Part shown: positions 2,369 to 22,257 of the stretch, in pieces | How the letters are laid out: each line of letters starts with the position of its first letter | How positions within the stretch are numbered: the first letter of the stretch is position 1 | Assembly (NCBI GenBank): GCA_964471745.1 | Contig: CAYYHI010000034.1 | Span: 1-22,257, forward strand | Source: an uncultured bacterium | GTDB taxonomy: Bacteria > Electryoneota > AABM5-125-24 > Hatepunaeales > Hatepunaeaceae | Length of the DNA: 22,257 nt | Reading direction: 5' to 3' | Notes under the pieces: generated by a model | Database searches by the model: none | What the model was told of the DNA's origin: nothing | What the model saw: only the letters and a program-made list of their open reading frames with translations | Position numbers and translations under genes: made by a program

Positions 2369-3895
2369 TTATTCAAAACCGAGCTCACCGACCGTGTCTT
2401 CAGTTACTTTTACAATAGAGCCATCCCGAACCATAGCCACTATCTTTTCGATATCGGGATAGAGAACCCGGTCATTCTCCAGGAAGGCAACCTGCTCCCG
2501 GATCTTATGATAGGCGATGCGTGTTCCTTTGCCTGGTTGGAGTGGCTTGCGGTAGTCAAACGCCTGAGCGGCTGACATCATCTCTATCGCCAGTACCGCG
2601 CCGACATTGCGCAGGATTTCACCGCACTTGCGCACTGCGATCGGCGTCATAGCCACGTGATCCTCCTGATCGGCGGAAACACTGATAGAATCGACGCACG
2701 CCGGATGAGACAGCACCTTGTTCTCGCTGACCAGCGCCGCCGCAGTGTACTGCGCTACCATAAGTCCCGAATTGAGACCATTACCCTCTACGAGGAAATC
2801 AGGCAGCCCGGATAGATTCTTATTCAGAAGACGGTTGGTATGCCGTTCGGACAGGTTGGCGATTTCGGACATCGCCATTGCCAGGAAGTCCATCCCCAGC
2901 GCGATGTTCTGACTGTGGAAGTTGCCGCCCGCCAGGTAAGCTTCGCCCTCCGTAAAGAACAGCGGATTATCCGCCGATGAGTTCATCTCCGTTTCAACCT
3001 GCTTGCGTACGTACAGCCATGCATCGACCGTCGGACCGTAAACCTGCGGTGTGCAGCGCATCGAATAGCCGTCCTGGACCTTGCCTGAACCGTCGGCGAT
3101 GACTTCGCTGTCAGCCATCAACATCCGCAGATGTTTCGCCACCAGGTTCTGGCCGTGGAACGGGCGCGCTGCGTGCAACCGGGCGTCGTAAGCCGATTGG
3201 ACTCCCTTCAGTGCGTCGATGGTCATAGCTGACGCAATGAACGCGTTTTTAATCAGATTGCGGGCGTCGACCAACTCCAGCGCTGCGCCACCGACGCACA
3301 TCTGACTGCCGTTGATCAGCCCCAAACCTTCCTTGTAGCCGAGGTCGATGATCTTGATGCCGGCTTGCTCCATCGCCTGACCGCCCGGCATCCGCTCGCC
3401 CTTATAGTAAGCTTCGCCTTCGCCTAAGCATACTAAAGCCAACTGCGACATCGGGGACAGATCGCCGGAAACGCCCAAAGAGCCTTTTTCGCAAACTACC
3501 GATGTAACGCCCTTGTTCAGCATATCCACTAAAACCTGCGGAATCTGCAGCCTGACGCCGGAATTGCCGCGGCAAAGCGTGTTCGCGCGCAACAACATCG
3601 CTGCTCGCACATTCTCCTCAGGAAACGGATCACCAGTACCGGCGGCGTGGCTGTAAATAATACGCCGCTGTAGTTCGGAACTCATTTCAGGTGACACGCG
3701 CAAACGTGCCAGTTCGCCAATGCCGGTAGTCACACCATAAATGGCTGTACCCTTGTCAACTAACTTTTGAATCAGCGCAGCAGAAGCGTTGATCCGTTCG
3801 ATTGCTTCCGGTGCGAGTTCAACTTCGGCGCCGTTTCGAGCAACCTGAGCAACCTGGTCTATATTAAGGTTGTTTCCGTTTATTTGTATTTTCAT
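2369..3895 (-). CDS. hutH: Histidine ammonia-lyase (MIO-dependent aromatic amino acid lyase family)
   Basis: Matches HAL across its 508 aa. It has the SGDL active-site region (GSLGVSGDL) and the conserved FHSQNIALGMDFLAMAMSE..SERHTNRLLN..LSGLPDFL block. The ATG is at 3895 and is preceded by an AGGAG RBS. Confidence 0.88.
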   Translation of the reverse strand: MKIQINGNNLNIDQVAQVARNGAEVELAPEAIERINASAALIQKLVDKGTAIYGVTTGIGELARLRVSPEMSSELQRRIIYSHAAGTGDPFPEENVRAAMLLRANTLCRGNSGVRLQIPQVLVDMLNKGVTSVVCEKGSLGVSGDLSPMSQLALVCLGEGEAYYKGERMPGGQAMEQAGIKIIDLGYKEGLGLINGSQMCVGGAALELVDARNLIKNAFIASAMTIDALKGVQSAYDARLHAARPFHGQNLVAKHLRMLMADSEVIADGSGKVQDGYSMRCTPQVYGPTVDAWLYVRKQVETEMNSSADNPLFFTEGEAYLAGGNFHSQNIALGMDFLAMAMSEIANLSERHTNRLLNKNLSGLPDFLVEGNGLNSGLMVAQYTAAALVSENKVLSHPACVDSISVSADQEDHVAMTPIAVRKCGEILRNVGAVLAIEMMSAAQAFDYRKPLQPGKGTRIAYHKIREQVAFLENDRVLYPDIEKIVAMVRDGSIVKVTEDTVGELGFE

Positions 3896-4020
3896 GTTTT
3901 ATGTACTCCTGAGATGCAGTATAGTATAATTTTTATTAGGTTCCCGCCAGATTACGACCGTAACAATACTTTGAAATCCACAAGCCAGGAATCCATCGGT
4001 CTTGAAATCTGGCGGTAACT
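3896..4020 (-). promoter_or_regulatory. hutH 5' leader/promoter region (copy U1). It has a conserved structured element (outer stem CCGCCAGATT...AATCTGGCGG, inner GACCG/CGGTC) and an AGGAG RBS.
   Basis: Inverted repeats lie immediately upstream of the hutH ATG. The whole segment recurs, ~85% identical, at 7467-7600. Confidence 0.4.
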
Positions 4021-4041
4021 AAATAATTGTCTTCCTTTCAT

Positions 4042-4090
4042 AGATTGCTTCACTGACCGCCAGGGTCATTGCGAACGAAGTGAAGCAATC
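4042..4090. terminator. Hairpin (13-bp stem AGATTGCTTCACT/AGTGAAGCAATCT, ~23-nt loop) downstream of MTase-nuclease gene A. Probably a terminator or REP-like element.
   Basis: Inverted repeat read from the sequence. It shares the GAACGAAGTGAAG..AATC core with the 27-bp-stem hairpin at 19222-19306. Confidence 0.45.
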
Positions 4091-4136
4091 TTTAGAGACG
4101 GGTACGGAGCCCAGTCCTCCTGAAGTTGACAGTCCA

Positions 4137-5726
4137 TTAGTCAAATATCTTCTCTTGGTTATCTGATTTATTTACGAATTTGGGAGCTCCCAATAGTCCT
4201 CCTCCAGGAGGAATCTTAAAGCAATCCGGATCACTTAGCAGTTGCGGGATTGTTAAAATCTGCATCCGAGGATAATCCCGGTTCATAACCTCCGAATGAT
4301 AAAATCCGGCTGAGGACGCTTCCGAAATCATCCCCGCAGTTGGCGGTTCGAGAGTTATGAATGCGCTCATTTCAGCCTTTTCCCTCTCCATTACGCCCTT
4401 GAGGTCGCGTATCTGGGATGGGTTCACGGTCCCGGATTTCACTTGAATGATGCATTTGGCGTACGTTCGCCGAGGACCGTGTATAAAACTCCTGTAGCCA
4501 TCGATACCCCGGTCAGCGCCCTTTTTCTTTTCACCCCACGGTCGAGCGTTGATTAACCCCAATGCCCAATATTGGAACTGGTATCGGTTCTCCCTTGCCA
4601 AAGCTCTCGCCTCTTCCACGGTTGTCGGTTCACCGATTACATCGTAGGACTGGCGATCCATACCGAACCTGGAGTATAGCCGGAATTTAATCAGGTCGAT
4701 CGCCAAGTGAGTTACATCGATCCCGATCCATTGACGCGGTGGAAGCTCCGGATTCTCTTTATTAAGAGTCTCAACTGCATCGATTGTTGTGCCGCAGCCG
4801 CAGAAGGGATCGAGGATTATATCACCTGATTTGGATGCCGAATTAACTACCCTGTGTAAGAGCTCCAACGGTTTTTGTGTTTGGTAACCGAGTCTTTCCT
4901 TAGCCTGTGAATTAATAAAATCGATCTCCCAAACGTCGGGCGCAGTAGTTAATCGGGTTTCTGCTTCGACGATCCTTGCATAATCTTTGAGATTTATCCT
5001 TCCCCGCGCTACGGCTTCTTCAACCTTCCCTTTATCATAGATGATTAACTGTGGCTTTCTCACGCCATCAATTGGTACTGTATTTCGATCCCAGCCTCTT
5101 TCGTGCTTCTTAATTTGTCCGGATGTTGGTTTAATATAAGTCCTGTTGATTTGATGTTGCATATCCTTCGCATAAAACAGGATATTATCATGCATCCTTT
5201 GGAAGTGCTTCGATTTTGCAGTCCACCGCCTGTAATACCATATTATATCATTTCGGAATAGCTTCGGTCCAAATATCGCATCCAAGACAAGCTTGAGGTA
5301 ATGACTGGCGGTCGGATCGCAATGCAGATATAACGAACCGGTCGGCTTCAATATCCGGTGCAATTCAACCAGTCTGACAGCCATCTGGACTAAATACGCA
5401 TACATGGGCGAATGACAGAGGAAGCTCTCCAGCATATTTAACAGAGCAACCAACGGCTGTGGTGTATAGTCAATTACGCTGTTTATCTCATATAAAGCCT
5501 TCGCGGCGTTCTCATCCCACCTCCATGTATCCTCAAACGCCTTGATCTGAGCCGATGAGGGTGTTCCTTCCTCGTCCTTAAACAGAACGTTGTAGCTCTG
5601 ATTGGAGTTAAATGGCGGATCAAGGTAGATCAGGTCGACCGATTCCGATGGAAAGAAATCCCTGTCTCTGAGGAATTTGAGGTTATCACCGAAATATAAA
5701 CGATTGGTGGGGATCATACAACACAT
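4137..5726 (-). CDS. Beta-class DNA amino-methyltransferase (N6-A/N4-C; DPPF...FCGCG) fused to a C-terminal Mrr-type PD-(D/E)XK restriction-endonuclease-like domain (paralog A)
   Basis: Motif IV DLIYLDPPF comes before motif I ILDPFCGCGTT, the beta permutation. PTGSLYLHCDP is also present. The C-terminus has YWALGLINARPWG..RGIDGY..CIIQVKSG..IRDLKGVM..AFITLEPPT, matching the Mrr catalytic-domain hallmarks (GIDG, QxK, FxTt). The likely real start is the conserved MIPTNRLYF at 5717. Confidence 0.8.
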   Translation of the reverse strand: MCCMIPTNRLYFGDNLKFLRDRDFFPSESVDLIYLDPPFNSNQSYNVLFKDEEGTPSSAQIKAFEDTWRWDENAAKALYEINSVIDYTPQPLVALLNMLESFLCHSPMYAYLVQMAVRLVELHRILKPTGSLYLHCDPTASHYLKLVLDAIFGPKLFRNDIIWYYRRWTAKSKHFQRMHDNILFYAKDMQHQINRTYIKPTSGQIKKHERGWDRNTVPIDGVRKPQLIIYDKGKVEEAVARGRINLKDYARIVEAETRLTTAPDVWEIDFINSQAKERLGYQTQKPLELLHRVVNSASKSGDIILDPFCGCGTTIDAVETLNKENPELPPRQWIGIDVTHLAIDLIKFRLYSRFGMDRQSYDVIGEPTTVEEARALARENRYQFQYWALGLINARPWGEKKKGADRGIDGYRSFIHGPRRTYAKCIIQVKSGTVNPSQIRDLKGVMEREKAEMSAFITLEPPTAGMISEASSAGFYHSEVMNRDYPRMQILTIPQLLSDPDCFKIPPGGGLLGAPKFVNKSDNQEKIFD

Positions 5727-5744
5727 CCAATTGGACTCAGCATT

Positions 5745-5815
5745 TCAAACCTTTAGCGCCGTACTGAGCAACCTGGTCTATATTAAGATTGTTATCGTTT
5801 ATTTGTGTTTTCAAT
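5745..5815 (-). repeat. Degenerate copy of the hutH 5' coding end (the ATG has decayed to ATTG). It forms a short uORF-like leader directly upstream of MTase-nuclease A.
   Basis: The reverse complement reads (L)KTQINDNNLNIDQVAQ..., versus hutH MKIQINGNNLNIDQVAQVA. The conserved junction CCAATTGGACT(C/T)AGCATTTCAAACCTT(T/C)AGCGCCGT precedes both MTase genes. Confidence 0.7.
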
Positions 5816-5841
5816 GAATATCTCCAGAGAAACTAATTATT

Positions 5842-7380
5842 TCAATCAAACATCTTATTTTGAGAATCATCCCGCTTCTTAAATTTTGGTGCCGAGGCTA
5901 ATTGTCCACCTGGAGGAATCTTAAAAATATCCGGATCCTTAAATAATTCTTTGATTGTTAGTATCTGCAAACGCGGATAATCCTTGTTCATCACCTCGGA
6001 ATGATAAAACCCAGTTGCAGCAGACTCCGTTATCATCTCTTTAGTTGGCTTCTCAAGAGTAATGAAAACACCAAGTTTTGCATTTACTCTTTCCATAGTC
6101 CCTTTTAAATCCCTTATCATACTGGGATTAACTTTACCAGATTTTACCTGAACTATACATTTTTCGTATTTTCGCTTGGCACCGTGTAGGAAGTATCTAT
6201 ATCCATCTATTCCTCTATCGGGTTTTCCCCACGGACGTGCCCCAATTAAACCGAGAGCCCAATATTCGAATTGTTTACGATTCTCAAGCGCCAAGGCTTT
6301 AGCTTCCTCTAAGGTAGTTGGTTCCCCTATAACATCATAATAGTTTCTATCGATACCGAATCGTGTCATAAGACGGTTCTTCATAAGATCAATCGCCAGA
6401 TGTGTGATGTCGATGCCGATCCACTTGCGAGGCGGTTTGTCGGGAGTTTCCTGATTTAATGTCTCTACAGCGTCAATTGTCGTTCCGCATCCGCAGAAGG
6501 GATCAAGGATCATATCGCCGGGATTTGAGCCGATAGTTATTATCCTTCTTAGAAGTCGAACAGGTTTTTGGGTATCATAACCCAATGATTCTTTTTCACC
6601 ACTGGTGAGTTTTTCAATATTGAATAAATCATCCAACGGACGCCCGTATGCCATTGCGTCTTCAATATAGCGTTTGATTCTCTTTCCCTTTCCAGCATCG
6701 GAAAGAACGTATTCCCTTCCATCTTTATCTACATGGATTTTTTGCTTCCTAACTTTTATATATTCCTCCTTTGATTCCCATTCGGCTGTCGGGTAGTTAA
6801 AGGTAAATCTCAATTTCTTTCTATATAGAAATATAGTATCATGTCGGGATTCAATCCTGGATTTCAGCTTTTTATTCCATCCTGAATAATGCCAAACTAT
6901 ATCATTTCTGAAATTCTTCGGTCCGAAAATGCCATCTAATAATAATTTTAAATAGTGACTCGCCGTCGGATCGCAGTGCAGGAATAGCGAGCCAGTAGGC
7001 TTCAGAATCCTATGCATCTCGACCAATCTCACCCCCATCTGCACCAGGTAAGCATACATCGGTGAATGTTTCAGGAATTCTTCCAGCATATTGATCAAAG
7101 CGACAAGCGGTTGGGGAGTGTAGTCAATAACCGTATTCATTTCATGCAGCGCTTTTGCAGCAGATTCATCCCAGCGCCACGTGTCCTCGAAAGCCTTAAC
7201 CTGTGCCGTTGAGGGCGTCCCCTCAGCTTCTTTGTACAGAACGTTATAGCTCTGATTGGAATTGAACGGCGGATCAAGGTAGATCAGGTCGACCGATTCC
7301 GATGGGAAGAAATCCCTGTCCCTGAGGAATTTAAGGTTGTCACCGAAATATAGGCGGTTGGTGGGGATCATATACAACAT
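5842..7380 (-). CDS. Beta-class DNA amino-methyltransferase fused to a C-terminal Mrr-type nuclease domain (paralog B; the central target-recognition region differs from A)
   Basis: Has the same motifs as paralog A (DLIYLDPPF, ILDPFCGCGTT, DRGIDGY, CIVQVKSG, VFITLEKPT). The N-terminal ~160 aa and the C-terminal nuclease domain are highly similar to A. The region between motif IV and motif I is strongly diverged. Confidence 0.8.
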   Translation of the reverse strand: MLYMIPTNRLYFGDNLKFLRDRDFFPSESVDLIYLDPPFNSNQSYNVLYKEAEGTPSTAQVKAFEDTWRWDESAAKALHEMNTVIDYTPQPLVALINMLEEFLKHSPMYAYLVQMGVRLVEMHRILKPTGSLFLHCDPTASHYLKLLLDGIFGPKNFRNDIVWHYSGWNKKLKSRIESRHDTIFLYRKKLRFTFNYPTAEWESKEEYIKVRKQKIHVDKDGREYVLSDAGKGKRIKRYIEDAMAYGRPLDDLFNIEKLTSGEKESLGYDTQKPVRLLRRIITIGSNPGDMILDPFCGCGTTIDAVETLNQETPDKPPRKWIGIDITHLAIDLMKNRLMTRFGIDRNYYDVIGEPTTLEEAKALALENRKQFEYWALGLIGARPWGKPDRGIDGYRYFLHGAKRKYEKCIVQVKSGKVNPSMIRDLKGTMERVNAKLGVFITLEKPTKEMITESAATGFYHSEVMNKDYPRLQILTIKELFKDPDIFKIPPGGQLASAPKFKKRDDSQNKMFD

Positions 7381-7399: not shown

Positions 7400-7600
7400 C
7401 AAACCTTCAGCGCCGTGCAGGCAACTTGGTCTATGTTAAGGTTGTTTCCGTTTATTTGTGTTTTCATGTTTTATATACTTCTTAGATGCAGTATAACATA
7501 TTTTTTATTAGGTTCCCGCCAGATTACGACCGCGCTAATACTTTGAAATCCACAAGCCAGAAATCCATCGGTCTTGAAATCTGGCGGGAACTAAAAATGT
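7400..7600 (-). repeat. Second copy of the hutH 5' coding end (7400-7466; intact uORF MKTQINGNNLNIDQVACTALKV*) plus the hutH leader/promoter (U2, 7467-7600), upstream of MTase-nuclease B.
   Basis: Direct comparison with 3815-4020 gives ~85-90% identity. The uORF stops 19 nt before the MTase B ATG. Confidence 0.75.
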
Positions 7601-7610
7601 ACAGGACCTC

Positions 7611-7690
7611 ATCATTCCATCGAAAGATGGAATCCAGTAACGTACGTAATATCAGCAACTTCTCTGGATTCCAACTTCCGTTGGAATGAT
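7611..7690. terminator. Paired related hairpins (ATTCCATC-GAAA-GATGGAAT and ATTCCAAC-TTCC-GTTGGAAT) with an alternative central pairing (GGAATCCAG...CTGGATTCC). This is the likely terminator region after the aminotransferase-fusion gene.
   Basis: Inverted repeats read from the sequence. The region lies between the fusion-gene stop (7747) and U2. Confidence 0.4.
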
Positions 7691-7746
7691 GAATCCCGAG
7701 ACGATTAGGTATTTTCGGACACACTGTTTCGCGGGAATGACAGTGG

Positions 7747-10086
7747 TTACTTATTTATTATCTCCCAGATCCTTTCCTTCGCTTCAGCGAGCTCCATACT
7801 CTCGGTGTTGACGATATAAAGCGGAACAGCATCCAGCAGTCTATTCCACTGGCGGCGCAGCAGATCCATGCGCGCGGCGTCGCTAACCAGGAGATACGGA
7901 TTGTAGAACGGAACCGAGAACCACCGTCCGTGCGACATCGAATAACCGCCCTCTTCGATTATGCGCAGCGCGGCGTCAGTTGACGGTTTGTCTACCTTCG
8001 GCGCCATGGTGTCCCTCTTCAGCAGGATTATGGAGCTTAGCAGCGTCCGCTTGATATGCCTGGCTGAACCGCCGATCCAGTATGGGTCGAGTATGGCGAA
8101 TGAATTGCGCGATCCCTCATAGCAGCAGGCTGCGCCCTGTTCGAGTGGGCATTCGCTGCTGACCAGATGCTTTTCTGCCTGGCAATCGTCCGACTTCGTG
8201 ACGACGTTCTCCAGCTTGGATCGGTCGAATAAGGGCATCAACTCCGGAAGCTTTCCTGCCAGGTTGGTATGTATCAGGAACTTACGCTCAACCGAATCGG
8301 CGATCGGCGAACCTCCAGCCTGACGGACGAAGAACCCGTCGTAGCTGTGCAATCGGGCTTCCTGACGGCGCATCAGACCGGCGAAATGAGTCGAACCACC
8401 TGTCCCCGGCGGCGCAATCAGGGCAACGCCCCGACCGTTGACATCAAAGCACGAGCCGACAACAAGGTGCATGTCGAACGTGCGCGAGGCGATGTCATCG
8501 ACAATACCCAACGTCATGGCACGCAACTGCGGATAGAAGGCGGTGTTGAACGTCAAACCGGTACGTGTCTGAGAGTTATAGAAAACGCGCGCTTCCCGTC
8601 CCGGCGCATCCTTGACACCGTACAGCAAACCGTGAGGTTCGAGATCCGACTCGATTGGCGATGGATACCAGTTCTCCGTCCAGAAGTCGATGAGATGCGG
8701 TGAGTTCGTCATCATCTTCACTACAACACCGCCGATGTTGGCGCACCATTCGTGATAGCGGTCGTATGTCATTGCTGCTTCAGCCTCAGAAACGAGCGCG
8801 TCGCGCATCTCTATTTCGATAGCTGTTTCCAGTTCGGAATAATCCTTGATCTTGGTCACTGTGTTGTTTAACGCCCGCCGCTTGGCTTTGGTAGTCGGTT
8901 TCAGCCATGCCAGCGCCTCGGTTACCCTGTCCAGCGCAATAGCCAGATTCTCCTGCGATGTCGCATACGAGAAGCGGATGAAATTGTCCGCACCGAACGC
9001 ATCACCGGGTACGAGCGCTACGTGGGCGTGCTTCAGAAGGTAGTATGCCAGTCCGCTGGAATTGCGTATCGGTACGCCTTCGAACTGCTTGTCGTAGTAC
9101 CACGAGAAATTCGGGAAGGCATAGAACGCGCCCTCAGGCTTGTTGCAGGATACGTGCGGCATGCCGTTCAGCTTATAGATCACGAAGTTACGCCGTGCTT
9201 CGAACTCCTGGCGCATCCGAACGATTTCGTGCTGCGGTCCGGTCAGCGCTTCCACGCCCGCCCACTGCGCGACCGAATTGGGATTGGAGGTGGCGTGCGA
9301 CTGTACCTTGGACATGCCCTGAATCAGTTCCAGAGGTCCCACTGCATAGCCGAGTCGCCAGCCGGTCATCGCGTAGGATTTCGAGAAGCCGCAGACAATG
9401 ATCGACTTGCTTCTGACCTTCTCGCCAAATGCAGCGACCGATTTCATCTCGAATCCGTCGTAAACGAGCTTTTCGTAAATCTCATCGGCGATGATAAACA
9501 AGCCTTCATCCATACAGACGTCGATAAGCTTCAGCAACTGATCCGGGTTATAGGCAGCGCCGGTGGGGTTGCACGGGTTGTTGAGGATAATGGCTTTGGT
9601 TCGGGCAGATAAGGCACGTCCCAGGTCTTCGGTTGTCAGCCGGAAACCGTTTTCCTCGCGTGTATTGACGTAGATCGGCACTCCCTTGGCGAGGTTCACC
9701 ATGTGCGGATATGACACCCAGTATGGCACCGGCACAATGACCTCGTCGCCCTTGTTCAGCAACGCGGTGCAGGCGTTGAACAGGCACTGCTTGCCACCCG
9801 TAGAGACGATCACCTCGCCCGGTTTGTAATCTGCACTGCATTCATCGCTGTACTTGCGGGCGATGGCTTCGCGCAGCTCCAGAATGCCGGTGTTGTCGGT
9901 GTATTTCGTATAGTTCTTGTCGAGAGCCGCTTTCGCCGCGTTCTTAATGTTCTCCGGCGTGGGAAAATCAGGCTCACCGACGGAAAGGTTTATGACATCG
10001 ATCCCTTCGCGCCGCATCTGCTGCGCCTTGGAGCTGATGCGCAAGGTCGACGAAAAGCCTATGCGTTGTACTCGGTCTGATAACAT
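7747..10086 (-). CDS. Fusion protein: N-terminal aspartate/aromatic aminotransferase (PLP fold type I), joined to a C-terminal ~380-aa extension containing an HprK-C/PEPCK-like domain with a degenerate P-loop.
   Basis: AspAT hallmarks are present in the first ~400 aa: SVGEPDF, NNPCNPTG, the PLP-lysine block FSKSYAMTGWRLGY, and RFSYA. The C-terminal part has GRGVALIAPPGTGGSTHFAGLMRRQEARLHSYDGFFV. This resembles the HPr-kinase C-domain G-x-GVLI-G-SG-GKSE..L...G..LV-DD but lacks the Walker-A Lys. It is one uninterrupted 779-codon frame. Confidence 0.7.
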   Translation of the reverse strand: MLSDRVQRIGFSSTLRISSKAQQMRREGIDVINLSVGEPDFPTPENIKNAAKAALDKNYTKYTDNTGILELREAIARKYSDECSADYKPGEVIVSTGGKQCLFNACTALLNKGDEVIVPVPYWVSYPHMVNLAKGVPIYVNTREENGFRLTTEDLGRALSARTKAIILNNPCNPTGAAYNPDQLLKLIDVCMDEGLFIIADEIYEKLVYDGFEMKSVAAFGEKVRSKSIIVCGFSKSYAMTGWRLGYAVGPLELIQGMSKVQSHATSNPNSVAQWAGVEALTGPQHEIVRMRQEFEARRNFVIYKLNGMPHVSCNKPEGAFYAFPNFSWYYDKQFEGVPIRNSSGLAYYLLKHAHVALVPGDAFGADNFIRFSYATSQENLAIALDRVTEALAWLKPTTKAKRRALNNTVTKIKDYSELETAIEIEMRDALVSEAEAAMTYDRYHEWCANIGGVVVKMMTNSPHLIDFWTENWYPSPIESDLEPHGLLYGVKDAPGREARVFYNSQTRTGLTFNTAFYPQLRAMTLGIVDDIASRTFDMHLVVGSCFDVNGRGVALIAPPGTGGSTHFAGLMRRQEARLHSYDGFFVRQAGGSPIADSVERKFLIHTNLAGKLPELMPLFDRSKLENVVTKSDDCQAEKHLVSSECPLEQGAACCYEGSRNSFAILDPYWIGGSARHIKRTLLSSIILLKRDTMAPKVDKPSTDAALRIIEEGGYSMSHGRWFSVPFYNPYLLVSDAARMDLLRRQWNRLLDAVPLYIVNTESMELAEAKERIWEIINK

Positions 10087-10183
10087 GTTATTTAAATTTC
10101 ACTTTGAAAGGATTTTTCAATTGTCTCATTATTTCATTGTTGTATTGTTATATTGTTGTATTGTTAGAGATTATAGTTTAGTT

Positions 10184-10352: not shown

Positions 10353-10733
10353 TCAATCCATCCAATATTCGGTGACTATCTTATCCAACTTTTCGCGCAG
10401 TAAGGGAACATCATCGGTAATGGTTGTCCAGACCCGGTTCAAATCAATCCTGTAGTAGGCATGTATCAGGCGGTTGCGCATCCCGATGATGTCCTCCCAT
10501 GGAATGTCGGAGAATTCACGCCGGACTTCGGGCGAGACCTTGGAAGCTGCCTCACCGATCAACTCAATGGCTTTCACAACCCCAAGCTCCAACAGGCGAT
10601 CTTTATCCAAATCCCGGCGCGTCTTGCTTTGAGTGAACTGTTCCACATCCCTCGCGGCATCCAGCATGTGCCGCAGCCGGATGAAGTCATCCTTGTGCAT
10701 ACTGCACCTGCGCCGATGAAATAACATCATCAC
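10353..10733 (-). CDS. hepT: HepT-family HEPN toxin (DUF86) of a MntA/HepT type VII toxin-antitoxin pair
   Basis: Carries the R-x4-HxY motif (MRNRLIHAY). The likely start is the internal Met at 10700, which gives a 14-nt overlap with mntA. Confidence 0.8.
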
Positions 10734-10986
10734 GGAAATATGGACTTAGGTCGTCCGGTGTCCGAAGGTCAACCTTGCGCCCAAGTATCGCCGACAGTTC
10801 CCGCTCCATTGCCGCCATCCGGAGAAGTCCCACTACCGCTTCGGGTTCAAACTCCACCAGCACGTCAATATCGGAGTCCGGGTGGAATTCCTCCCGAAGC
10901 ACCGACCCGAAGAGTGCCAGTCGTCGGATGCGATGCTTGACGCAGAAGGACTTGATCGCGCGTTTGTCTATGTTGAGCTTGCCCAT
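10687..10986 (-). CDS. mntA: MntA-family minimal nucleotidyltransferase antitoxin
   Basis: Contains [24 protein letters not shown] (GS..R...x..SDxD). It is ~99 aa and sits immediately upstream of hepT. Confidence 0.8.
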
Positions 10987-11003
10987 TTTACTTTATGTTT
11001 GTA

Positions 11004-11130
11004 TCACAACTTCTCGCGCGACGCCGAGTCTAAGAGCGCCAGGCGTTTGACCTTGAGCTCTTTTAACTTGTCGTGGTTTTTGGTTAGAAGTTGTAAAATA
11101 TCTTCACGAGTCAAAACATTTCTCCCTAAA
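11004..11130 (-). pseudogene. Second MntA-like N-terminal remnant (...LTREDILQLLTKNHDKLKELKVKRLALLDSASREKL*)
   Basis: Shares an exact 34-nt stretch (GCCAGGCGTTTGACCTTGAGCTCTTTTAACTTGT, encoding KLKELKVKRLAL) with the fragment at 10184-10345. The GS motif is lost and a stop follows. Its start is unclear. Confidence 0.4.
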
Positions 11131-11132
11131 AG

Positions 11133-11714
11133 TTAATAGACAATATCTTCAAAATTTATTCCATCTCCTCTAAATTTTTCAATTATTTTGTCATAGGAAA
11201 ATTTCAGGCTTCCAGGCCATAACAAAGGAGCATTTACACTCCCTATTGGTCCCCAGCTCCAACCTCCAGAAGTAAACCCCCCTTGTAAGTAAAGAAATTC
11301 GTGAATTAGATCTCCATCAAAAACGTTATCTTTATCGTTAAAGGATTTCTTAAAACTATCAGCGTCCTCTAGACTTAAATCTACATAAAGGGTTCTAAGA
11401 GATAACATAATCGGTGTCCATCCAGGCCTGGAGTCGCCCCAGACATCCTCTATGCGATAGAGGGAAACGTTCCTTTCCACTTTAGGTTTTAAGTCAACAA
11501 TTAGAGCACTATTTTCTACTGATTGTCCAAGTATCAATAAAATATTTTGCTCGGATAAGTGCCATTTTATACCAGAATCTTTAGGTGCTAGTCCCAAACT
11601 TTGAACATAAGTTGCTATAGGACCTTTTCTGCCAGCAAGTGAGACTTTTTTCAAATAGCTGTAGGTTGATAATTCGCCAGCTTTTTGTTTAACATTGTAA
11701 ATTATGAAAGGCAT
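11133..11714 (-). CDS. Hypothetical protein (193 aa), in an AT-rich segment
   Basis: A long ORF on the same strand as the toxin-antitoxin array, with a plausible SD (AGGAGGTAAAC) upstream of the ATG. There are no recognisable motifs. GC is markedly lower than in flanking genes. Confidence 0.5.
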   Translation of the reverse strand: MPFIIYNVKQKAGELSTYSYLKKVSLAGRKGPIATYVQSLGLAPKDSGIKWHLSEQNILLILGQSVENSALIVDLKPKVERNVSLYRIEDVWGDSRPGWTPIMLSLRTLYVDLSLEDADSFKKSFNDKDNVFDGDLIHEFLYLQGGFTSGGWSWGPIGSVNAPLLWPGSLKFSYDKIIEKFRGDGINFEDIVY

Positions 11715-11764
11715 GTTTACCTCCTCTTAATTGGCATTTGGTAAATTATGCGTTTATTTATAGT

Positions 11765-11826
11765 ACCCTCACCCCATTCTTGACCACCCATCCCGCGAAG
11801 CTGGCGGGGCTGGGGTTGTGGGGGGC
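11765..11826. repeat. Imperfect-palindromic C/G-rich REP-like element (copy 1)
   Basis: ACCCTCACCCCATTCTTGACCACCCATCCCGCGAAGCTGGCGGGGCTGGGGTTGTGGGGGG. It is closely related to 12432-12486. Confidence 0.6.
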
Positions 11827-11875
11827 TCATAGAAGGGTACAGTGCCACGCCCTCATTCCTTAACCCAACTATTCC

Positions 11876-12100
11876 TCATGCAGTAGCTATTCTTTCCAAC
11901 GTAACTTCCTCAAACGCCTGAATAATCAGTTGGCGTATGTCGGTTTTTTCAGATGCGTCAAGAATTTCGATTGCAACCACATTACCATCATGGTCATAAT
12001 CGACGATCATGTCCTGGTTGATTTCGTCTGAGTTGCCGATCTCGGTCTCCCTCAAACGAATATACAGCGCATCCGCTTCTTTCGAATAACGAATTCTCAT
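11876..12100 (-). CDS. DUF2283-family protein (putative antitoxin partner of DUF4258)
   Basis: YSKEADALYIRL signature (YDxEaDaLYI). 74 aa. Lies 2 nt downstream of the DUF4258 gene. Confidence 0.65.
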   Translation of the reverse strand: MRIRYSKEADALYIRLRETEIGNSDEINQDMIVDYDHDGNVVAIEILDASEKTDIRQLIIQAFEEVTLERIATA

Positions 12101-12102
12101 TT

Positions 12103-12348
12103 TTATTTTCCTTTCAAGTACTTCCAGATCCTATTAGTGGGATAGACAGTGATCAGTTTCTTATTTTCTGTGACTAAGCGTATCAATTTATTACCAATCA
12201 GTTTCTGGTAAATGAGGCGGTTCCTTTTACCGATTACAATATCATCGGGATTCACAAGAACATCATGAATTAACTCACGTGGTATCTTTCTCTCTTTCAA
12301 TTGTTGAACAATATGATCCGTCCAAATCCATTCTTTCAGCTTTTTCAT
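12103..12348 (-). CDS. DUF4258-family protein (putative toxin)
   Basis: TDHIVQQLKERKIPRELIHDVL and ...KLITVY match the DUF4258 pattern. 81 aa. Confidence 0.6.
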   Translation of the reverse strand: MKKLKEWIWTDHIVQQLKERKIPRELIHDVLVNPDDIVIGKRNRLIYQKLIGNKLIRLVTENKKLITVYPTNRIWKYLKGK

Positions 12349-12424
12349 TTAAGATCCAACGAAAATTGCCTGAAGAAGCCAATTTATATGAAATTAGACA
12401 GATACGGAGCCCCGTCCTCCTGTT

Positions 12425-12748
12425 TTAAGCAACCCTCACCCCATTCCTCACCACCCATCCGGCAAAACATGCGGGGCTGGGATTGGGCAGTTCAGCAGCG
12501 TCAAAGAAGTGGAGGTCAATGTCGTCGCCCTCTGCTTCCTTAACCCGGCAGCTTGTTTTCACCTGTTTCATCAGCGTCCATTTACTGAAGTTATCTACAA
12601 AAAGAGCGATGTCCAGATCGCTGTATTCGTCTGAACTACCATCCACTTGCGACCCGAAAATATAAACGGCATTGATATTGGTCTTGCTGCCAAGTAGTTT
12701 AATTACTTGGTTTACCCGCAATGTCAGTAAAGATTTGTCAACAACCAT
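12425..12748 (-). CDS. Minimal nucleotidyltransferase (MNT) of a HEPN/MNT pair
   Basis: YIFGSQVDGSSDEYSDLDIALFV. The 3' end of the ORF runs into REP-like repeat copy 2. Confidence 0.75.
   Translation of the reverse strand: MVVDKSLLTLRVNQVIKLLGSKTNINAVYIFGSQVDGSSDEYSDLDIALFVDNFSKWTLMKQVKTSCRVKEAEGDDIDLHFFDAAELPNPSPACFAGWVVRNGVRVA
12432..12486. repeat. REP-like palindromic element (copy 2)
   Basis: ACCCTCACCCCATTCCTCACCACCCATCCGGCAAAACATGCGGGGCTGGGATTGG. It is preceded by TACGGAGCCCCGTCCTCCTG, which also occurs at 4103-4122. Confidence 0.6.
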
Positions 12749-12832
12749 CCGTATAACTCCTTGGTTGCTTTCAAGTATTTTTCAGTGGTTTGTCTGGTCA
12801 GCTTCAAATCAATCTGAAGCGGATACCTGGTT

Positions 12833-13114
12833 CTAACATAGATAATCGGATAGTTCCCGCAGGAGGGAGACCTGAGTAGCTTCCAAGTCAAGCCCAGCTT
12901 TCTCGATTAATGTCACGAGATTGTGAATACGTGGCGCAAGCTCCCCACTATCCTTTATAATTAAGGCTTTAATGAGTTTCTCCAGTGCCTGTTGACAGCA
13001 GAACAAGACATAGAGGTAGCGTCTTGCAACTTGCATAGCTTCTGCAGTCTTCAAGTCATATTCGGCTTTCTCAAGCCATCGTTTGACTTCCTTACTGTCC
13101 AATCCTGCCTGCAT
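12833..13114 (-). CDS. HEPN-domain protein (partner of the downstream MNT)
   Basis: QQALEKLIKALIIK...RIHNLVTL, the HEPN QAvEKalKA / HdL pattern. The start is chosen at the Met at 13114, 2 nt after the stop of the upstream OMP-like gene. Confidence 0.75.
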   Translation of the reverse strand: MQAGLDSKEVKRWLEKAEYDLKTAEAMQVARRYLYVLFCCQQALEKLIKALIIKDSGELAPRIHNLVTLIEKAGLDLEATQVSLLRELSDYLC

Positions 13115-13116
13115 TC

Positions 13117-13722
13117 TTAAAACCTCACACCAACGATGAGTGGCACCGTGATGGGCATCGTGGCTGACCCGAAAGGCGAAACACGCCAATTAATCTCCGC
13201 GAAAAACGCCAGATTGTCGCTGATTTCCAGATCGGCGCCGAAACCCATTCCAAATGAGGCACCATTCGGTACGCCAATCCCACAAAAGAACTTAAATACG
13301 GGCATGAAGGGTGTCCTTCGAAGTCCACCGTAGTCGCTGAAGCGCAAGGTGACATCGAGCCCTGCTTCATGATAGTAAACGTCAGGCTCAGATTTGTAAC
13401 CGACCATGCACGGCACAACATAAGGAGGGCAGGGATTAGCTTCACGGTTGTTTAGTCTGTATCCATCGGGCACAATGACCAGACGAGGCTCCACTGCCAG
13501 AGCTAAGGTATTCTTTATTACACTACCAAAACCAGCCGAGAACAGGTAACCTTTGGTTGCATAATCATCGTCACCATCACGGGAATGTGGATAAACAACC
13601 ACACCGCTGTTTACCATCCGGAATGACTGGGCTTCCGTAAGTTCAGGGATCGTGGATAATAGACATACCAGTAGCAATAACTTGAGCGATTGAAACAATC
13701 GAAATCTCATATTGCGAGACAT
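13117..13722 (-). CDS. Putative small outer-membrane beta-barrel protein (signal peptide, alternating amphipathic strands, C-terminal ...VRF)
   Basis: N-terminal signal (LKLLLLVCLLSTIPELTEA). Ends in an aromatic residue (F), as typical for OMPs. No specific family was recognised. Confidence 0.4.
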   Translation of the reverse strand: MSRNMRFRLFQSLKLLLLVCLLSTIPELTEAQSFRMVNSGVVVYPHSRDGDDDYATKGYLFSAGFGSVIKNTLALAVEPRLVIVPDGYRLNNREANPCPPYVVPCMVGYKSEPDVYYHEAGLDVTLRFSDYGGLRRTPFMPVFKFFCGIGVPNGASFGMGFGADLEISDNLAFFAEINWRVSPFGSATMPITVPLIVGVRF

Positions 13723-19221: not shown

Positions 19222-19306
19222 CCAATACGTTGTCATTCTGAACGAAGTGAAGAATCTCGTTTTCATTCCCCCGCTGTTTGAGATTCTTCACTTCGTTCAG
19301 AATGAC
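19222..19306. terminator. Long perfect hairpin (27-bp stem GTCATTCTGAACGAAGTGAAGAATCTC, 31-nt loop) between the convergent usp and peptidase genes. It is a bidirectional terminator or REP/MITE-like element.
   Basis: Inverted repeat read from the sequence. It is related to the 4042-4090 hairpin. GTTGACAGTCCA (19165-19176) nearby also occurs at 4125-4136. Confidence 0.6.
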
Positions 19307-20957: not shown

Positions 20958-21371
20958 ATGATATGTAATTTACGAAGATATATGGAAATATGCAATGTTC
21001 ATTAAGGAAATAGATTAGTAATGGTGGTGTAGTTGGAGTGTACAAGGGGGATTTATGTCTGGTTTTTTTGCATGAAGCTCCATTGAGATCGGTCAGATAA
21101 TCAGTCTATCATCTCAATGTATATGACAGCATTTTTATCTCTGCAAAACATTCTCAATTCTCATTAACATTGATATAGTCGAAGGCGTGTGTTAAGTTTT
21201 AATCCTAATCCGGCGATAAGCGTGCTGCCATGTGTCCTCACGTGGCAGAGTGATGTTTCAAGCGTCAGGTGGGGACACCTGACGCCACGATAAATCCAAC
21301 TTAAGCTGTTAACAAGATTTAATAACTGAATTCAAAAGGCTGTTCTCAACATTAGATTTACGGAGGAACTT

Positions 21372-22257
21372 ATGGATGGATTTAAGATTCTATTCAAGAT
21401 AATCGCATTGTTGTTAACCGGATTTATAGTACTGACCTGCACCCAAGACCAGACCCCAACCGAACCACTTATCGATTACATTTCACCTTTAGTTGAATGG
21501 CTTTACCCTCACGGCGGCAATGAGTTGTCGGGCGTGGTCGAGCTGCGTTTCAGCGTTTATGACGAGGTTGGGATCGACAGCGCCTGTGTGTACATCAATG
21601 GCTCCCTGTTCGGGGAGGGTAGACACTCCTGTCTGCCACCAAACGGGGAGGGTAGACACTCCTGTATGCCATCTGATAACAAGTGGGACGGACATTCCTG
21701 TCTGTCAGTGAATTGTGGTCAGACTGCATCAGCCGACACCATCTTCAGTTTATCCTGGAACACCCTTGACTTCGACGACGGCGTCTACATCCTCGAAGCC
21801 CGCGCCTGGGACGATAGCGGCAACTTGGGGATAAGTCCTTCGCTGGTGGTGAACGTCCGTAACGGTGACCAGCCTCCGCCGGAAGACCGGATGCCGCCGG
21901 ACGTCTGGTGGACAGCGCCGGATCCCGGCAGCACGGTCGAAGGCGATGTTCTACTGCAGATAGGCATATACGACGAGAATGATGTTGATTCGGTGCGACT
22001 GATAAAAAACGGAGAGGTTGTGTATGAGTATCATCCTGGCACCCCCCCTTCAATTCCCCCCCGGAAACCGGTGGGGAGAGAGCCCGTTACATCTGCACGC
22101 CAAGCTGGTGGAATTAAGGTTGTGTATGAGTATCATCCTGGCACCCCCCCTTCAATTCCCCCCCGGAAACCGGTGGGGAGAGAGCCCGTTACATCTGCAC
22201 GCCAAGCTGGTGGAATTAAGGATAGAAACAATTCATTCTCTCCCCCCCGCTCCGCGG
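21372..22257 (+). CDS. Lipoprotein (3' end outside the window) with repeated Ig-like modules, in-frame tandem repeats and C7 homopolymer tracts
   Basis: GGAGG RBS. Signal peptide ILFKIIALLLTGFIVLTC with a lipobox LTC. The frame is open for 295 codons to the window edge, so the ORF track does not list it. Two related modules (WLYPHGGNELSGVVELRFSVYDEVGIDS / VWWTAPDPGSTVEGDVLLQIGIYDENDVDS) are present. Confidence 0.6.
   Translation, partial: MDGFKILFKIIALLLTGFIVLTCTQDQTPTEPLIDYISPLVEWLYPHGGNELSGVVELRFSVYDEVGIDSACVYINGSLFGEGRHSCLPPNGEGRHSCMPSDNKWDGHSCLSVNCGQTASADTIFSLSWNTLDFDDGVYILEARAWDDSGNLGISPSLVVNVRNGDQPPPEDRMPPDVWWTAPDPGSTVEGDVLLQIGIYDENDVDSVRLIKNGEVVYEYHPGTPPSIPPRKPVGREPVTSARQAGGIKVVYEYHPGTPPSIPPRKPVGREPVTSARQAGGIKDRNNSFSPPRSA
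21608..21673 (+). repeat. 33-bp in-frame tandem repeat ×2 (GEGRHSCLPPN / GEGRHSCMPSD), plus a degenerate third unit (WDGHSCLS), inside the lipoprotein gene
   Basis: CGGGGAGGGTAGACACTCCTGT(C/A)TGCCA occurs twice in tandem. Confidence 0.7.
22017..22220 (+). repeat. Perfect 102-bp tandem duplication ×2 (34-aa unit VVYEYHPGTPPSIPPRKPVGREPVTSARQAGGIK) containing two C7 tracts per unit
   Basis: Exact repeat 22017-22118 and 22119-22220, read from the sequence. A third C7 tract follows at 22243-22249. Confidence 0.8.

Follow-up and report, generated by a model that had tools for sequence, protein, structure and literature searches.

Hairpin repeats, probably of the REP/RPE kind, lie in frame in an immunoglobulin-like loop of a lipoprotein gene from an uncultured bacterium

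The window analysed here, a stretch of 22,257 nucleotides (nt) of contig CAYYHI010000034.1 (assembly GCA_964471745.1) from an uncultured bacterium of the family Hatepunaeaceae, runs at its 3' end into a gene for a lipoprotein with immunoglobulin (Ig)-like domains, and two arrays of hairpin repeats lie within this gene. Open translation from the ATG at 21372 on the plus strand yields 295 codons, i.e. the 5' part of the gene (21372–22257), whose open reading frame (ORF) passes the window end and whose homologues are 33–65% identical. The N-terminus of the protein, MDGFKILFKIIALLLTGFIVLTC, provides a hydrophobic core followed by Cys23 (signal peptide 21372–21440; Cys23 codon 21438–21440), and in those homologues in which the N-terminus is present the hydrophobic core is likewise followed by a Cys at the equivalent position. 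The putative lipobox VLTC, judged from the sequence, is non-canonical at position −1. Ig-like domain 1 (21480–21866, plus strand) is of the Big_7 type and was recognized through homologue alignment and the strands of an AlphaFold2 (AF2) model. The N-terminal half of Ig-like domain 2 (21897–22041, plus strand), which ends in the native residues NGEVVYEY(HPG), is identified by alignments, by AF2 strands 177–220 and by a match to Pfam Big_7 (PF17957) over amino acids (aa) 176–218, scoring 42 bits as compared to a cut-off of 24.1. As this match covers profile positions 1–45 of 70 only, domain 2 appears to be interrupted exactly where the repeat described below begins. An earlier annotation made from the bare sequence (the initial annotation) had proposed a lipoprotein-type gene with Ig-like modules, which the present analysis supports. 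The region probably represents the 5' end of a real cell-surface lipoprotein gene, which presumably continues past 22257.

Homologues were gathered by protein search (7), from metagenome-assembled genomes (MAGs; 5 loci, belonging to Candidatus Hatepunaea, a Calditrichaeota bacterium and an unclassified bacterium) and from metagenomes (12 loci), the hosts of the lipoprotein relatives being uncultured Calditrichota-like sediment bacteria. Two window proteins looked up by exact match had no entry, and the genome and metagenome scans yielded relatives but not the source contig. Full-length relatives comprise 486–808 aa and consist of a signal peptide with Cys, two to five Big_7 domains and a right-handed beta-helix (Beta_helix match in loci L007 and L012; Beta_helix plus NosD in protein P0005). 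The closest relative, the intact 727-aa gene of L012, exhibits 65% protein identity, and its nucleotide identity is 86% over window positions 21339–21935, that is from 33 nt upstream of the ATG.

In domain 2, Tandem Repeats Finder detected the single strong tandem array of the window (22015–22221, period 102, 2.0 copies, 100% matches, score 414), and an independent repeat search returned copies at 22015–22116 and 22117–22218 with 100% identity. A repeat of 102 nt at 100% identity cannot have arisen by chance. Since 102 nt correspond to 34 codons, the duplication is in frame with the ATG at 21372, and the perfect two-copy, 34-aa repeat reported initially is thereby upheld by both programs. The +1 frame is likewise open through the entire repeat, while the third frame contains stops. 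In copy 1 (22015–22116, plus strand), ~27 nt of native coding sequence are combined with one hairpin element and a unique stretch of ~35 nt; copy 2 with a shared AGG occupies 22117–22221 on the same strand, and the junctions display this AGG as a 3-nt microhomology. The unit begins within native coding sequence, at a GTTGTG (VV) common to the window and L012, and the native codons taken into it read VVYEYHPG. The start in native codons together with the AGG at the junctions suggests a segmental tandem duplication rather than a transposition event.

Five C7 runs are present, at 22042–22048, 22056–22062, 22144–22150, 22158–22164 and 22242–22248. Their number and the location of two runs in each unit agree with the initial annotation, which had placed the fifth run one base too far to the right (22243–22249). 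The remainder of the 22,257-nt window is free of C7 or G7 runs, all five lying within its last 220 nt. The count alone is unexceptional (shuffle mean 2.6; 15 of 100 shuffles reach five), and it is the clustering rather than the number that stands out.

The runs belong to a recurrent element with the layout C-run, spacer of 2–7 nt, C-run, mini-palindromic loop of ~10 nt, G-run and, optionally, a spacer and second G-run. Each copy of the 102-nt unit contains one such element on the plus strand, at 22042–22081 (C7-TTCAATT-C7GG-AAA-CCGGTGGGG-AGAGA; the minus strand reads G7-AATTGAA-G7) and at 22144–22183, respectively. A further hairpin, TCTCT-C7-GCTCCGCGG, starts at 22229 on the plus strand, is cut by the window end at 22257 and corresponds by homology to the hairpin native to the L010 loop. 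The left arm of this L010 hairpin (411–438) aligns directly with the final 28 nt of the window, with 4 edits, and the window element is the reverse complement of the L010 hairpin (80% over 40 nt, L010 459–420); the window tail is complementary to 22069–22081 and 22171–22183 (inverted repeats, 92%). The element is found in the same loop of L001, L002, L010, L012–L016 and L021; in L009 it occupies the loop of domain 1. Intergenic copies exist at L012 3317–3351, L013 5920–5954 and L013 526–571, the first two sitting between a C25-peptidase gene and the ATG of the lipoprotein gene. The inner three stem bases covary (TGC/GCA, TAC/GTA, TTC/GAA; CGG/CCG in the window), as read from the sequences themselves. 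Recurrence in homologue loops, in both orientations and in intergenic DNA makes hairpin arms the best explanation for the C7 tracts: all five would be arms of this family, four of them in the repeat and the fifth as left arm of the next hairpin.

The initial annotation overlooked that the duplication interrupts an Ig domain, and it also missed a second repeat array in the equivalent loop of domain 1. Here, a repeat search and a covariance model revealed three tandem hairpins at 21611–21707 on the plus strand (stems ~21618–21637, 21651–21670 and 21687–21706), which resemble repetitive extragenic palindromic (REP) sequences of the GTAG type. The units are spaced 33 and 36 nt, encode GEGRHSC, GEGRHSC and DGHSC and score 38.1, 34.0 and 34.9 bits, respectively. 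They share the core GAC-AYTCCT-GTC, and two of the three carry a GTAG head: copies 1 and 2 read GGGTAGACAC..., and copy 3, which is devoid of GTAG, reads GGGACGGAC. Sixteen copies from the window and its relatives align gap-free with an 8-bp stem in which 97.7% of cells are paired and four of the eight pairs show compensatory double changes, a covariation statistic that is inflated by the requirement of at least seven of eight paired positions for a copy to be kept; equal pairing occurred in 0 of 500 shuffles, and slid controls were 20–49% paired. Outside genes, L007 contains three GTAG hairpins in both orientations (9819–10032) and L021 one (1283–1310), and GTAG stands at the beginning of these intergenic copies. 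The census amounts to four clear and two weak intergenic copies in the 137 kb of loci surveyed. Judged by their short palindrome with covarying stem and by the GTAG tag, these units would qualify as REPs.

Some of the compensatory changes in the stem lead to different amino acids (R/G, L/P) while preserving the base pair, which argues for a constraint on the nucleic acid and not on the peptide. This observation bears on the idea that selection acts at the protein level, i.e. that Pro/Gly/Cys-rich repeats such as GGHSC, PPYYCRGG and TPPSIPP are kept as disulfide or binding loops and the hairpins are incidental. As this idea would predict, no repeat departs from the reading frame, and both the GGHSC and the PPYYC units contain a recurring Cys. 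However, one and the same element is read in different frames (GGDKGG in L009 versus GGQRGG in L012), it is found in either orientation and also outside coding sequence, and its stems retain pairing at the expense of the peptide, all of which renders selection for the peptide highly unlikely. At the DNA level, the domain-1 array is identical at 115 of 116 positions between the window and L012, within an alignment of 86% identity overall, and the hairpin cores of L012 and L013 are 97–98% identical as compared to 87–92% for flanking segments. The array identity and the core conservation point to constraint on the DNA or to recent exchange, two possibilities that they do not distinguish.

Both arrays of the window lie in the loop that connects the 'xYxNG' strand (hereafter 'NG') with the 'WxT' strand. 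A comparison of 44 Big_7 domains and 19 relatives showed that this loop mostly measures 18–19 aa, with 16–21 aa in 27 of the 44 domains, and that all larger NG-to-WxT distances (22–141 aa) are expansions of one and the same loop. In domain 1 of the window, the NG-to-WNT loop has 51 aa as compared to the baseline of 18–19 aa; there are 96 extra nt, after which the native sequence resumes with the host ORF preserved. L012 reads KNGAAVVTI, then a loop of 141 aa, then VDYLWDTRTDSDGVYVWEARAWD and on to the end of the protein. Full-length relatives with an intact ORF have loops of 141 (L012), 106 (L009), 95 (L014), 84 (L008), 79 (L013), 67 (L021) and 46 aa (L017), and eight complete homologues with expanded loops keep their ORF intact through two to eight C/G tracts each. 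At least three unrelated hairpin families occupy this loop in different domain copies, other occupants being ATTCCCGC...GCGGGAAT in L008 and L019 and an inverted pair of GTAG hairpins in L017. In the AF2 model of the window protein, Ig strands are predicted with confidence at residues 40–75 and 123–162 (domain 1) and 177–220 (domain 2), while residues 82–119 and 224–295, the two inserted regions, have a pLDDT (predicted local distance difference test) score below 50. Thus, in domain 1 and in the eight complete relatives the insertion lies in frame at a structurally permissive loop. We consider it probable that this loop, presumably translated, is an exposed, disordered and tolerant hotspot that is filled in frame by GC-rich hairpin repeats.

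The initial annotation regarded the gene as a candidate for a phase- or size-variable surface protein and recommended a comparison of strains. Comparison of the related lineages indeed uncovered copy-number differences by whole units: the domain-1 loop contains three units in the window and in L012, two in L014 and one each in L013, L015, L016 and L001, with clean unit indels, and in the domain-2 loop L015 has one extra 36-nt hairpin unit as compared to L001 and L016 (lineages that are 88–93% identical). Indels between relatives consist of whole repeat units (33, 36 nt), every one a multiple of three. On the other hand, tract lengths are conserved: C7/C7/G7/G7 is identical in L001, L015 and L016 despite 7–12% difference in the flanks, and L012, L013, L014 and L021 have C7/G7–8/G7 with their ORFs intact. 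The sole exception is L002 with G6/G6 and a truncated gene, which also suffered an internal deletion and has an unrelated gene downstream. In the consensus assemblies compared, tract-length polymorphism that shifts the frame between relatives was not found. Size variation by whole in-frame units is therefore supported in this family as far as its sequences tell, and homopolymer phase variation is not supported among the relatives.

A contingency locus, in which strand slippage at the C7 tracts turns the lipoprotein on and off or changes the reading frame of the loop, is quite unlikely. Such a switch would fit the presence of five C7 tracts, the only ones in the window, inside an ORF, and as two of the three frames are open through the repeat, a slip by +/−1 would not cause immediate termination. 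In addition, the tail matches L010 in the +1 frame and a loss of 1 nt in any upstream tract would link it to the ATG frame, and L002, with its truncated gene, has G6/G6 where relatives have G7–8/G7. However, the identical tract lengths in L001, L015 and L016, the nearly identical ones in L012, L013, L014 and L021, and the eight complete expanded-loop homologues that stay in frame through many tracts speak against switching, even though minority length variants are invisible in consensus assemblies. Moreover, a homopolymer of seven is at the low end for efficient slippage, and the tracts, initially taken for slipped-strand sites, are accounted for by a hairpin element that is also present outside genes and in homologue loops.

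The proximity of the repeat to the end of the contig deserves consideration. The contigs of L001, L015 and L016 also stop inside or just after the loop, and the end of the window is therefore probably an assembly break. It might be argued that a loop in a de Bruijn graph or a chimeric contig end produced the pair of perfect copies and perhaps also the final 36 nt: the copies are 100% identical, the repeat lies 36 nt from the window end, the sequence halts at the foot of a C7/G-run hairpin, and the last ~50 nt of L001 diverge from its near relatives. However, an assembler needs reads across the unit-to-unit junction, and thus at least two copies or a junction-bearing variant were presumably present in the sample. 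Furthermore, L012 contains genuine diverged tandem units in the same loop (a ~135-nt unit, ~2.5 times), and the duplication is in frame. We see only a small chance of an artefact, and the exact copy number would be uncertain if k-mers or reads were shorter than the repeat.

Alternatively, the window could harbour a decayed remnant, that is a truncated or frameshifted pseudogene which has lost its 3' part, as in L002, and whose open frame is fortuitous. In L002 and L023 the gene breaks off in this very loop and has lost an internal segment; behind it lies an unrelated gene with a tail for the type IX secretion system (T9SS); the downstream gene of L002 is independent and has its own signal peptide. 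The frame of the window is offset relative to L010 at the tail, and by a rough estimate only 46 unique codons follow the break, so that the open frame is weak evidence. Nonetheless, the genes of L012, L013 and L014, the closest relatives, are intact, and so is domain 1 of the window together with its in-frame REP array; the tail, in addition, resumes homology to a native loop. All of this makes decay improbable.

We favour, with moderate confidence, a scenario in which in-frame hairpins resembling REPs or Rickettsia palindromic elements (RPEs) occupy a tolerant Ig loop and one of them was subsequently duplicated in tandem, resulting in a loop of variable length. That is, short GC-rich hairpins of this kind, which also exist in intergenic DNA, would have filled the NG-to-WxT loop in frame in both domains of the window. 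A 102-nt segment, comprising the VVYEYHPG codons, the element and ~35 nt, would then have been duplicated head to tail, most likely via replication slippage or unequal exchange favoured by the hairpins. The locus would vary by gain or loss of whole units, thereby changing the length of an exposed, disordered loop. One may go further and propose that the hairpin repeats are kept at the DNA level as a built-in diversifier of the loop, which would promote slippage, gain or loss of units, inversion and exchange between paralogues and lineages while the Ig scaffold remains constant. Hints in this direction are the three hairpin families in one loop, the fact that all complete copies are in frame, the array identical at 115 of 116 positions and the 97–98% identity of the cores; we regard this extension as unlikely.

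Several observations weigh against the scenario of REP/RPE-like hairpins in a tolerant loop. Neither hairpin element recurs in the other 21 kb of the window, and a high copy number or dispersal in this genome is thus unsupported. A REP-associated tyrosine transposase (RAYT) or other transposase was not seen among the 20 window ORFs scanned. The selection of hairpin copies for pairing, mentioned above, also belongs here. Neither the whole 102-nt unit nor its peptide has a second copy in the fetched loci or in the protein database: the unit is present only in the window among the loci compared, blastn against all loci gave matches limited to the 20–40-nt hairpin core, and in the protein database search no protein shared even three 5-residue words with the unit peptide. 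Consequently, ~35 nt of the unit appear to be unique among the fetched loci and in the protein database. The repeat region of the window folds no better than shuffles (z = +0.5, −1.1, −1.8), in contrast to the L012 loop (z = −3.9). Finally, the last 28 nt are homologous to L010 in a frame (LPPAPR, in L010 LPPAPRGG) that is shifted by +1 from the ATG frame (SPPRSA), in which a TGA would come up if the sequence went on as in L010, and the homologies of ATCATCC, PPSI and the tail to relatives are short and give conflicting frame signals. The gene may be out of frame at its tail, may regain frame in G-runs just past the window or may continue differently.

A number of other candidates were rejected. 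A double insertion of a miniature inverted-repeat transposable element with 3-bp target duplication is incompatible with the start of the unit in native codons (GTTGTG = VV, common to L012), and a CRISPR-like array is incompatible with a 102-nt period that is identical in its entirety and lacks spacers. A diversity-generating retroelement or a shufflon/invertase system was dismissed, as the 20 window ORFs scanned include no reverse transcriptase or recombinase. The C7/G-run hairpin is no terminator: it has no T tail and a terminator scan of the gene was empty. A structured RNA in the 102-nt unit was discarded on account of folding energies no better than those of shuffles. Likewise, an Rfam scan of the whole window (E ≤ 1) for known ribozymes and riboswitches returned only tRNA-Glu and, at intergenic hairpins, chance microRNA (miRNA)-like matches, none of them in 21372–22257, a region in which tRNA or transfer-messenger RNA is also absent.

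Outside the coding sequence, the comparison of window positions 20958–21371 with L012 (3295–3397) and L013 (5899–6000) showed that homology starts only ~33 nt upstream of the ATG. The upstream neighbour is a C25 peptidase with T9SS tail in L012 and L013 and an opposite-strand AAT-family gene in the window, and where L012 and L013 have the intergenic C7/G7 hairpin, the window shows the A/T-armed sequence CTTAAGCTGTTAACAAG. On the other side, a conserved gene without Pfam match and with the internal repeat NDxNDDKIALHTKNSS..ARA..EG follows the lipoprotein gene in every relative (L007 4458–5726, L008 12315–13394, L009 1796–3526, L010 1649–3067, L012 5603 onwards, L014 2243–3700), which suggests a two-gene cassette. 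L010 and L011, two contigs of one Calditrichaeota MAG, begin at the same base in domain 1 of paralogous genes (positions 1–100) and are near-identical for ~280 nt, which is another indication that assemblies of this lipoprotein family break because of paralogy and repeats.

Further repeats are scattered over the window. A perfect 27-nt inverted repeat, GTCATTCTGAACGAAGTGAAGAATCTC, with a 21-nt loop lies at 19232–19306 between a Usp gene and the AAT-family gene; one of its arms recurs at 4065–4085, and the two sites would thus seem to represent one more family of dispersed hairpins, for which Rfam gave only chance miRNA-like matches. A further REP-like family, AGACGGGTACGGAGCCCnGTCCTCCTG, is represented at 4096–4122, 11831–11857 and 12396–12422, with relatives in intergenic DNA of L014 (3940–4090), which implies that several dispersed hairpin families exist in these genomes. 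An 84-nt hairpin with 29-nt arms (90%) is located at 7609–7692, and a block of 175 nt is repeated at 91% (3849–4023 versus 7421–7595). A 50-nt block (3845/5764/7417) is common to three genes that follow one another on the minus strand, where it lies at the 5' end or upstream, namely the genes for histidine ammonia-lyase and two paralogous N6/N4-methylase-Mrr fusions. The 8-nt tandem repeat ATTGTTGT (~3.8–6 copies, 10112–10170) lies just upstream of a gene for a 779-aa aminotransferase fusion, and a similar run is found at 2087–2113 near the tRNA-Glu(CTC) gene (2269–2341). A defence and toxin-antitoxin cluster occupies 150–1650, 4137–7380 and 10353–13189 and includes a C5 DNA methylase with Vsr, the two N6_N4 methylase-Mrr_cat fusions in tandem, HepT/MNT, HEPN/Pol-beta nucleotidyltransferase and DUF4258/DUF2283 pairs.

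The literature offers precedents both for REPs inside genes and for RPEs inserted in frame (PMC3733652; PMC10969869). GTAG-tagged REPs are imperfect palindromes of 20–30 nt, which are mostly intergenic, with some in frame in genes and clusters encoding tens of aa (PMC3733652, Di Nocera et al. 2013). The palindrome of the window is similar in having a GTAG head and a covarying stem and in that its copies are single, tandem or inverted pairs, some of them intergenic. Unlike GTAG-REPs, which hit scattered sites in unrelated genes, it has hit one specific Ig loop repeatedly across paralogues and lineages; moreover, GTAG-REPs have a high genome-wide copy number and a RAYT, whereas here only 137 kb of loci were read. 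RPEs are in-frame palindromic repeats in protein-coding genes (reviewed in PMC10969869). They share with the present case the in-frame insertion at a permissive, surface-exposed position that preserves the ORF, but at ~100–150 nt they are larger than the units seen here (~30–40 nt), which are unrelated in sequence, belong to a different phylum and form locally amplified tandem arrays. RPEs were reportedly described by Ogata et al. in 2000. The 102-nt unit further differs from them in being a segmental duplication that includes host codons and not a transposed element.

Surface genes that vary in phase through poly-C/G tracts are known in Neisseria, Haemophilus, Campylobacter and Helicobacter, and the window resembles them in carrying C/G runs of at least seven inside a surface-protein ORF. 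Here, however, relatives have conserved tract lengths, the tracts form the paired arms of hairpins and are part of a dispersed element, and no ON/OFF tract-length polymorphism was observed among the relatives compared, all of them as assemblies. Coding minisatellites (variable number tandem repeats) occur in surface proteins of staphylococci, streptococci and mycoplasmas; as in these, in-frame tandem units that differ in number between related lineages resize an exposed region, but the units consist of hairpin (REP-like) DNA and lie inside the loop of a folded Ig domain and not in a linker or stalk. The minus-strand G7-N5–7-G7 also fits the canonical G-quadruplex (G4) pattern of four G3 tracts with 1–7-nt loops in a variable region of a surface protein, reminiscent of the pilE G4 that initiates pilin antigenic variation in Neisseria gonorrhoeae. 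Unlike in the pilE system, silent donor cassettes or recombination tracts were not seen and the resemblance is purely formal; given the adjacent complementary C runs, a hairpin is the simpler reading.

Taken together, the locus is a new instance of a known phenomenon, intragenic REP/RPE-like repeats, and the finding is descriptive. It is a length-variable loop of a known kind and not a demonstrated on/off switch, and by analogy it behaves like palindromic repeat DNA that is tolerated in frame at a permissive surface loop and amplified locally in the manner of a coding minisatellite. Palindromic repeat DNA would thus be carried in frame within folded protein domains outside Rickettsia and Proteobacteria, in an uncultured sediment lineage, and recur at one structurally tolerant loop of an Ig-like module. 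This may account for the tendency of contigs of this lipoprotein family to break at the loop, and it is a caution to annotators against taking every homopolymer tract in a surface gene for a phase-variation switch. If the loop expansions were adaptive, REP-like DNA would have been recruited to vary a surface protein.

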